From positions 510,001-542,000 of the forward strand of contig CP095464.1 of NCBI GenBank assembly GCA_021294815.2: a stretch of DNA of 32,000 bases, written 5' to 3'. Below are positions 15,776-16,141 of this stretch, piece after piece. The notes under the pieces are model-generated. The model saw only the letters and a program-made list of their open reading frames with translations. It was not told the DNA's origin and searched no databases. Source of the stretch: Verrucomicrobiota bacterium. Its GTDB lineage: Bacteria; Verrucomicrobiota; Verrucomicrobiia; Opitutales; LL51. Position 1 is the first letter of the stretch. The number at the start of each line of letters is the position of its first letter. A program made the translations under genes and the position numbers.

Positions 15776-16141
15776 ATGGTTGAGTTTGCCGTTATTGTTA
15801 AAGCGGTCATCTTCCTGGTGCTCTTAGCACTTGGAGGATACTTTTTTGTTCTCTTTCGTCGTCGCAACTGGTTTTTAACGGCGGAGCATAAGGACAAAGG
15901 TCCGGATACGCTCCAGGTGGTCCGGCAACTACCGATCGGGGGGCGCAGTTCATTAGCGATCATTCGTTGTAATCAACAAAAGTTTCTGATCGGAGTGAGT
16001 CCCTCAGGCATTACCGCGATTGGAGAGCTCCAGGCAACACCGACGGACAGTGCTTCATTTGGTAAAATTGGGGCTATCAATACCTCCTATGTGGTGAACA
16101 CACCGCCCGGGGAGTCTGCGGGGAAAAGCGAGACTGAATAA
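15776..16141 (+). CDS. Single-pass membrane protein resembling FliO (type III export-gate assembly factor family)
   Basis: 121 aa. One TM helix (AVIFLVLLALGGYFFVLF) is followed by a basic stretch, then LQVVRQLPIGGRSSLAIIRCNQQKFLIGVSPSGITAIGEL. This parallels Salmonella FliO LKVSASASLGPRERVVIVEVENARLVLGVTASQINLLHTL, recalled from memory. It starts 1 nt after the rplS stop. Confidence 0.5.
   Translation: MVEFAVIVKAVIFLVLLALGGYFFVLFRRRNWFLTAEHKDKGPDTLQVVRQLPIGGRSSLAIIRCNQQKFLIGVSPSGITAIGELQATPTDSASFGKIGAINTSYVVNTPPGESAGKSETE

Follow-up and report, generated by a model that had tools for sequence, protein, structure and literature searches.

A FliO-family protein accompanies an injectisome-type type III secretion system in a reduced Opitutales genome without flagellar marker genes

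Introduction

FliO has been 'traditionally considered flagellum-specific' (PMC12403147, PNAS, August 2025). [quoted passage not shown] FliO homologues have also been described within the operons of non-flagellar type III secretion systems (NF-T3SSs) in Myxococcota, Caulobacterales, Xanthomonadales, Burkholderiales and others, and some of their hosts, e.g. Luteimonas arsenica, are devoid of any flagellar genes (PMC12403147). Lastly, the non-flagellated Chlamydiia harbour an orphan FliO in an operon with genes for a YbjN-family protein, MqnB and MqnD, for which the authors of that study guessed a role outside type III secretion, as a chaperone linked to the Mqn enzymes (PMC12403147). Opitutales and Puniceicoccales are not mentioned in the main text of the same study.

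Here, we describe a fliO gene of a Verrucomicrobiota bacterium of the order Opitutales, located in a 32,000-nt stretch of its genome that we call the window. A sequence-only reading of this stretch had presented a FliO-like factor beside injectisome genes as something new. Given the non-flagellar FliO homologues already reported (PMC12403147), this novelty does not stand: the gene adds a case to the known non-flagellar FliOs and reveals no new type of system. What it contributes is an order-wide pattern, with a single flagellar fliO in relatives that have both a flagellum and an injectisome, and selective retention of fliO after flagellar loss. As the function of the exceptions in PMC12403147 was left open, the pattern in Opitutales bears on it.

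The flagellar FliO of Salmonella enterica and Escherichia coli (fliOPQR) belongs to the same Pfam family, and by analogy its chaperone or scaffold job is likely shared. In contrast with these species, the bacterium described here has no flagellum, its fliO lies between rplS and prmC and not beside fliP or sctR, its client could only be an SctR of the injectisome type, and the protein scores below the TIGR03500 cut-off. The FliOs of NF-T3SS operons are likewise members of the FliO family found with a non-flagellar T3SS (PMC12403147). Nevertheless, they sit inside the T3SS operon, whereas the window gene is tied to an operon for a ribosomal protein and is not always found next to sctSTU in its relatives. 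Furthermore, our evidence suggests that the window gene is a recent descendant of the flagellar fliO of its own lineage, and the protein has neither LysM nor AMIN additions. As an orphan gene, it can also be likened to the fliO of Chlamydiia, which similarly belongs to flagellum-less, host-associated PVC bacteria with a scattered injectisome, but the neighbours here are rplS and prmC instead of ybjN and mqnBD. A phylum-level FliO search in 201 genomes yielded 21 matches, with no obvious chlamydia-like group among them.

A FliO-family protein encoded directly behind rplS

The gene (window positions 15776 to 16141, plus strand) codes for a protein of 121 residues, and it is documented by a profile match, by homologues and by the dN/dS of its orthologues. 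The ORF matches the Pfam FliO profile PF04347 with an E-value of 7.8e-12 and 45.6 bits (gathering cut-off 22). Residues 26 to 89 align on profile positions 2 to 65, which takes in the block of residues 47 to 86 that the sequence-only reading had aligned by eye with Salmonella FliO. With the NCBIfam equivalog model TIGR03500 (FliO), the E-value is 3.8e-11 and the score of 42.9 bits is under the cut-off of 55.25. Going by these profiles, the ORF is a genuine FliO-family protein, as had been proposed for it from its architecture.

An AlphaFold2 model was built on an alignment of 12 homologues (mean pLDDT 69). It predicts an N-terminal transmembrane helix at residues 2 to 29 (15779 to 15862, plus strand; block pLDDT means 79-94), a core made of a four-strand antiparallel beta-sheet at residues 46 to 85 (15911 to 16030, plus strand; block pLDDT means ~72-87) and a disordered C-terminal tail at residues 89 to 121 (16040 to 16138, plus strand; pLDDT < 50). 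The strands span residues 46-55, 58-65, 68-75 and 78-85. The helix is directly followed by a basic patch, FRRRNW, which by the positive-inside rule would place the C-terminal part in the cytoplasm. The model and this patch display the transmembrane helix, the basic residues and the conserved soluble block that had been recognized in the letters. [quoted passage not shown] As a Foldseek search of the model against the PDB returned nothing at E <= 0.001, fold comparison cannot confirm the family membership; a PDB sequence search with the ORF gave chance-level matches only (E >= 0.23). The alignment of the 12 homologues begins at the first methionine, which is nearly invariant, in support of the start codon. 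Residues F13, L16 to G21, G55, R57, F70, L71, G73 and G83 are invariant in this set, and the region past residue 88 is variable, or missing altogether in some homologues.

The gene belongs to a string of same-strand genes that starts with trmD (14684 to 15382, plus strand; Pfam tRNA_m1G_MT, 197.5 bits) and continues with rplS, which codes for ribosomal protein L19 (15424 to 15774, plus strand; Pfam Ribosomal_L19, 132.6 bits). A single nucleotide separates the end of the rplS stop codon (15774) from the fliO ATG (15776). The release-factor methyltransferase gene prmC (16192 to 17037, plus strand; Pfam PrmC_N and MTS) then lies between fliO and the injectisome-type genes sctS (17090 to 17359), sctT (17356 to 18144) and sctU (18147 to 19238), all on the plus strand. 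A promoter and terminator scan detected nothing beyond shuffled expectation, and no terminator-like site before sctS; thus, no operon boundary can be claimed. The gene is not within a flagellar operon beside fliP, its flanks being rplS and prmC in a flagellum-less genome, and none of its neighbours in the window codes for a YbjN-family protein, MqnB or MqnD. We considered prmC as a stand-in for sctR and ruled it out, as it is an ordinary prmC according to Pfam and the genome has a true sctR. Directly after sctU, an ORF coding for an acidic protein of 250 aa (window 19300 to 20052) has no Pfam family (best E 0.21). It is not conserved at this site, as a MarC-family protein is encoded after sctU in locus L008.

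The type III genes of the genome are of the injectisome type and scattered

The genome consists of a single contig of 878,461 bp and is 95.6% complete. Pfam profile searches for Flg_bb_rod, FliG_C and Flagellin_N gave 0 matches each in these 878 kb. The genome has one copy each of FliP/SctR, FliO, FHIPEP (FlhA/SctV) and YscJ_FliF, the latter being a short lipoprotein of 287 aa.

All the type III genes that could be typed are on the injectisome side of the NCBIfam models. SctS scores 91.1 bits with TIGR01403 (cut-off 76.5) versus 74.8 with the fliQ model (cut-off 88.9), SctT 204.2 with TIGR01401 (cut-off 163) versus 123 with the fliR model (cut-off 169), and SctU 376.4 with TIGR01404 (cut-off 358) versus 289 with the flhB model (cut-off 349). 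The sequence-only reading was thus right in assigning the neighbouring SctS and SctU to the injectisome type. For SctR, the scores are 270 with TIGR01102 (cut-off 208.6) versus 195 with the fliP model (cut-off 217), and SctJ, SctN and SctL similarly pass the injectisome models. SctR, SctN, SctS, SctT and SctU all remain under the flagellar cut-offs, as do SctJ and SctL, which match FliF and FliH weakly. The sole type III system of the genome is therefore of the injectisome type, since every typed part agrees, and a FliO-like protein does coexist with such a system in a genome without flagellar marker genes, as had been suspected. The sequence relatives of SctU in the PDB are FlhB, SpaS, YscU and EscU. 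Its autocleavage motif is NPEH (window 18933 to 18944), the protein reading ...VTNPEHVAVALLY, and the usual motif is NPTH.

At least four separate loci harbour the T3SS genes, namely ~259-265 kb (sctJ, a 272-aa ORF without a family match, sctL, sctN, an sctO-like gene and the gene of a repeat protein), 101 kb (sctV), 569.9-572.1 kb (an sctQ-like gene and sctR) and ~527 kb (sctS, sctT and sctU, in the window). The absence of sctR near the ORF, which had been noted as a puzzle, is correct insofar as no sctR is found inside the window. However, this scattering accounts for it: the genome's one sctR (C1:571445-572095) is located ~44 kb downstream of sctS.

Two of these loci harbour proteins with unusual composition. 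A 500-aa protein encoded immediately downstream of sctN and the sctO-like gene (C1:259090-260592, minus strand) contains the sequence PESKVV ~20 times in tandem. From its location, it is a candidate ruler of needle length similar to SctP, which could be lengthened by added repeats. The SctQ-like protein (519 aa; C1:569889-571448, plus strand) matches SctQ/FliN by its last ~90 residues alone, the remainder being a long, extremely acidic low-complexity stretch. Upstream of its gene is an ORF of 237 aa with no family match.

Gene order in close relatives

The direct homologues of the FliO protein share 46-63% identity with it in BLASTP local alignments, and 36-55% over the whole alignment. They come from metagenome-assembled genomes (MAGs) labelled Puniceicoccales and were named FliO by their sources. 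The family of the window's genome, f1, comprises 17 species genomes of 0.6-1.1 Mb, with rod genes in 0/17 and FliP/SctR in 14/17. The gene order trmD-rplS-fliO-prmC is common to both of its genera, and prmC follows fliO in family f37 as well as in f1. In most species of g1, the window's genus, sctSTU comes after prmC, which places fliO two genes upstream of sctS. In one sub-lineage of g1 (L010, L011 and L020), sctSTU is not behind prmC, and in the sister genus g2 it is found behind a different gene.

The stable neighbours of fliO are thus housekeeping genes, rplS and prmC in these families and elsewhere recA, an aldolase gene or a fabV-like gene. The genes rplS, prmC and fliO are unlinked in the genomes G025, G044 and G017. 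We dismissed an ancestral rplS-fliO linkage among flagellated relatives in its original form, because the three genes are unlinked in G025 and G044. The isolate codes of the relatives (Gsp477, Nc350, Kf353, Cd354, Im510 and others) resemble those of termite-gut metagenome bins. To go by the isolate names only, the reduced injectisome-bearing genomes may belong to symbionts of termite-gut protists.

FliO accompanies type III gates across the order

We collected 151 genomes of the same order, which are MAG representatives of varying completeness, and used this identical set in every search. FliO (Pfam), rod genes and SctS (TIGR01403, the cut-off of which parts injectisome SctS from FliQ) were scored, and FliO was scored again with a profile built from the clade, A1. 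FliO was found in 48 of the 51 genomes with rod genes, in 30 of the 32 rod-less genomes with an injectisome-type SctS and in none of the 68 genomes with neither rod genes nor any SctS/FliQ; as the sampled genomes are related and not independent, these counts are descriptive and no statistical test was applied. Three rod-positive genomes yielded no FliO: one has a completeness of 64%, and the other two show a single weak rod-like match each and no FliQ. Completeness is 80% and 87% for the two rod-less SctS genomes in which no FliO was detected. The 30 rod-less genomes that do have FliO are nearly all reduced, at 0.8-1.1 Mb, and they belong to seven families (f1, f2, f7, f19, f37, f39 and f40).

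The Pfam profile alone missed divergent copies in four genomes (G001, G003, G016 and G125), all of which were recovered with A1. A sister genus without FliO, which we had considered, proved to be wrong, since this lineage-tuned profile finds copies there. Among the 151 sampled genomes, FliO accompanies type III gates, whether flagellar or of the injectisome type, and was never found in the absence of a gate. Orthologues in genomes lacking a T3SS would have spoken against the reading of this ORF as a type III factor, and the 68 gate-less genomes contain none.

Origin of the window gene

Rod genes and an injectisome-type SctS occur together in seven genomes (G025, G029, G035, G044, G050, G056 and G080). 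A single FliO was detected in each of these dual-system genomes (7/7), also when the tuned profile was used. The gene order is fliN-fliO-fliP in G035 and fliL-fliM-fliN-fliO in G080, and in the remaining five a flagellar-type fliQ is located ~1 kb from fliO. The injectisome cluster that we examined, the contiguous sctJ...sctQ-R-S-T-U cluster of G025, does not include a fliO. As the single fliO of dual-system relatives is beside flagellar genes, the window gene looks like a survivor of the lineage's own lost flagellum, which is the best fit to the sequence data. That a deep-branching T3SS would have kept the gene as a relic of its flagellar ancestry, as the sequence-only reading had alternatively envisaged, fits less well for the same reason.

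Genomes of the genus g59 appear to illustrate such a loss. G080 keeps flagellar genes and the fliN-fliO pair, and G121 (0.8 Mb, 96% complete) has neither rod genes nor a flagellar FliQ, yet has a fliO whose product is 49% identical to that of G080. Furthermore, G080 harbours a flagellar-type fliP, alone, directly behind rpsP-trmD-rplS (G080:C9, L071:2870-3586). This protein scores 257.5 bits with TIGR01103 (cut-off 217.45) versus 177.5 with the SctR model (cut-off 208.6). The same site behind rplS holds fliO in the rod-less G101 and in the whole family f1. The presence of fliP in one case and of fliO in the others indicates that the site was once home to flagellar gate genes in this clade. The spacer between rplS and fliP in G080 is 314 nt long and contains a hairpin, and the flagellar gate genes are scattered in this genome of 1.1 Mb.

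A maximum-likelihood tree was computed from 54 FliO cores over ~90 columns, with moderate to weak support. The proteins of families f1, f7, f19 and f37 group apart from the flagellar FliOs (UFBoot 88), and the rod-less f39 proteins are found with the flagellar protein of G080 (UFBoot 62). Based on GTDB families, we infer that fliO was kept through at least two independent flagellar losses, one within f39 and one on the side of f1.

A probable role in gate assembly

The dN/dS values among fliO orthologues of family f1 (pairwise Nei-Gojobori) have a median of 0.18 and range from 0.10 to 0.23, as calculated from the 16 of 55 pairs with dS < 3, dS being saturated in most pairs. The gene is thus conserved under purifying selection. 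That a gene of 120 codons persists across families of reduced genomes argues for a function.

The rod-less genome G017 is larger, at 4.4 Mb. Its fliO is convergent with and abuts sctU, in an sctK...sctQRSTU cluster (G017:C17, L021:9165-10896), and it is flanked on the other side by a gene for a CesT-family type III chaperone. This gene context provides a separate connection of fliO with the injectisome, in a genome that is not reduced. The 425-aa open frame around the FliO domain in G017 is probably a high-GC artefact, with a true start located later.

In the window's genome, SctR is the only FliP-family protein and SctT the only FliR-family protein; hence, the most likely role of FliO is that of an assembly chaperone for both. 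We propose the following scenario. The flagellated ancestors of the lineage would have carried a flagellar fliO, from which the window gene would descend. This gene would have been kept during genome reduction, with the loss of every other flagellar gene tested for. By analogy with Salmonella, FliO would chaperone SctR (C1:571445-572095) and SctT of the sole, injectisome-type T3SS. That a flagellar fliO outlived the flagellum and now chaperones SctR and SctT, with both the interaction and the role deduced from that analogy, appears to us reasonably likely. Going by the same analogy, FliO probably helps assemble the injectisome gate in this bacterium.

Alternative explanations

The history of the gene might be different, in that FliO might have arrived with the non-flagellar T3SS and never have been part of the lineage's flagellum. 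FliOs inside NF-T3SS operons are documented elsewhere (PMC12403147), the fliO of G017 abuts sctU and a CesT-type chaperone gene, the gene is two genes upstream of sctS in most g1 species, and the tree sets the FliOs of f1, f7, f19 and f37 apart, as one group, from those of flagellar systems (UFBoot 88). Such an ancient injectisome-dedicated FliO is nonetheless unlikely, as the seven dual-system relatives have one FliO each, beside flagellar genes, the contiguous sctJ-sctU cluster of G025 is devoid of it, the FliOs of rod-less f39 genomes cluster with the flagellar one from that family, and G080 has a flagellar fliP at the site downstream of rplS. That the gene is instead a functionless flagellar leftover, the deletion of which is still pending, seems to us very improbable. 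Reduced genomes usually purge useless DNA, and its frame is intact in 30 of the 32 rod-less genomes, in at least six families and nearly always in genomes of 0.8-1.1 Mb; it has invariant core residues and a dN/dS of ~0.18, and it was retained over at least two separate flagellar losses (within f39 and in f1). Decay would nevertheless agree with fliO being the sole flagellar-family gene detected and separate from sctR, with neighbours that vary between families, as for a gene without operon constraints, and with its variable C-terminal tail.

A functional FliO might also have been repurposed outside type III secretion, as a membrane chaperone for other proteins or for some task related to the translation genes around it. 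The stable linkage to trmD-rplS and prmC, and not to sctR, can be read in this way, and a role of this kind has been suggested for orphan FliOs (PMC12403147). However, we regard it as quite unlikely, because FliO is confined to genomes with a type III gate (0/68 gate-less genomes), the window shows no mqn or ybjN context, and the rplS linkage is explained by flagellar gate genes having once been located there. A counterweight to the chaperone reading itself is that SctR may have no need for FliO: the dual-system relatives have no dedicated injectisome FliO and fliO is not beside sctR. To our knowledge, classical injectisomes function without FliO.

Implications of a retained FliO

An extension of the preferred reading, that of a flagellar fliO retained as a chaperone of SctR and SctT, is that throughout the order one flagellar FliO might serve FliP in flagella as well as SctR in injectisomes, hence the repeated and independent survival of fliO, alone among the flagellar genes, in symbiont lineages that lose their flagellum. 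We put this forward tentatively, as a possibility that we would not bet on. If true, it would be the first injectisome to rely on a chaperone borrowed from the flagellum, and it would hint at a T3SS role for the orphan FliO of Chlamydiia as well, instead of one as a chaperone of the menaquinone pathway.

The clade represents a natural experiment, with genomes of ~0.8-1 Mb in which the three flagellar marker families are unmatched and fliO is kept. FliO as a chaperone of the injectisome SctR becomes directly testable with a defined protein pair, which offers a handle on the assembly of the SctRST gate in injectisomes with scattered genes. In several of the reduced genomes, each gate gene is present as a single copy.
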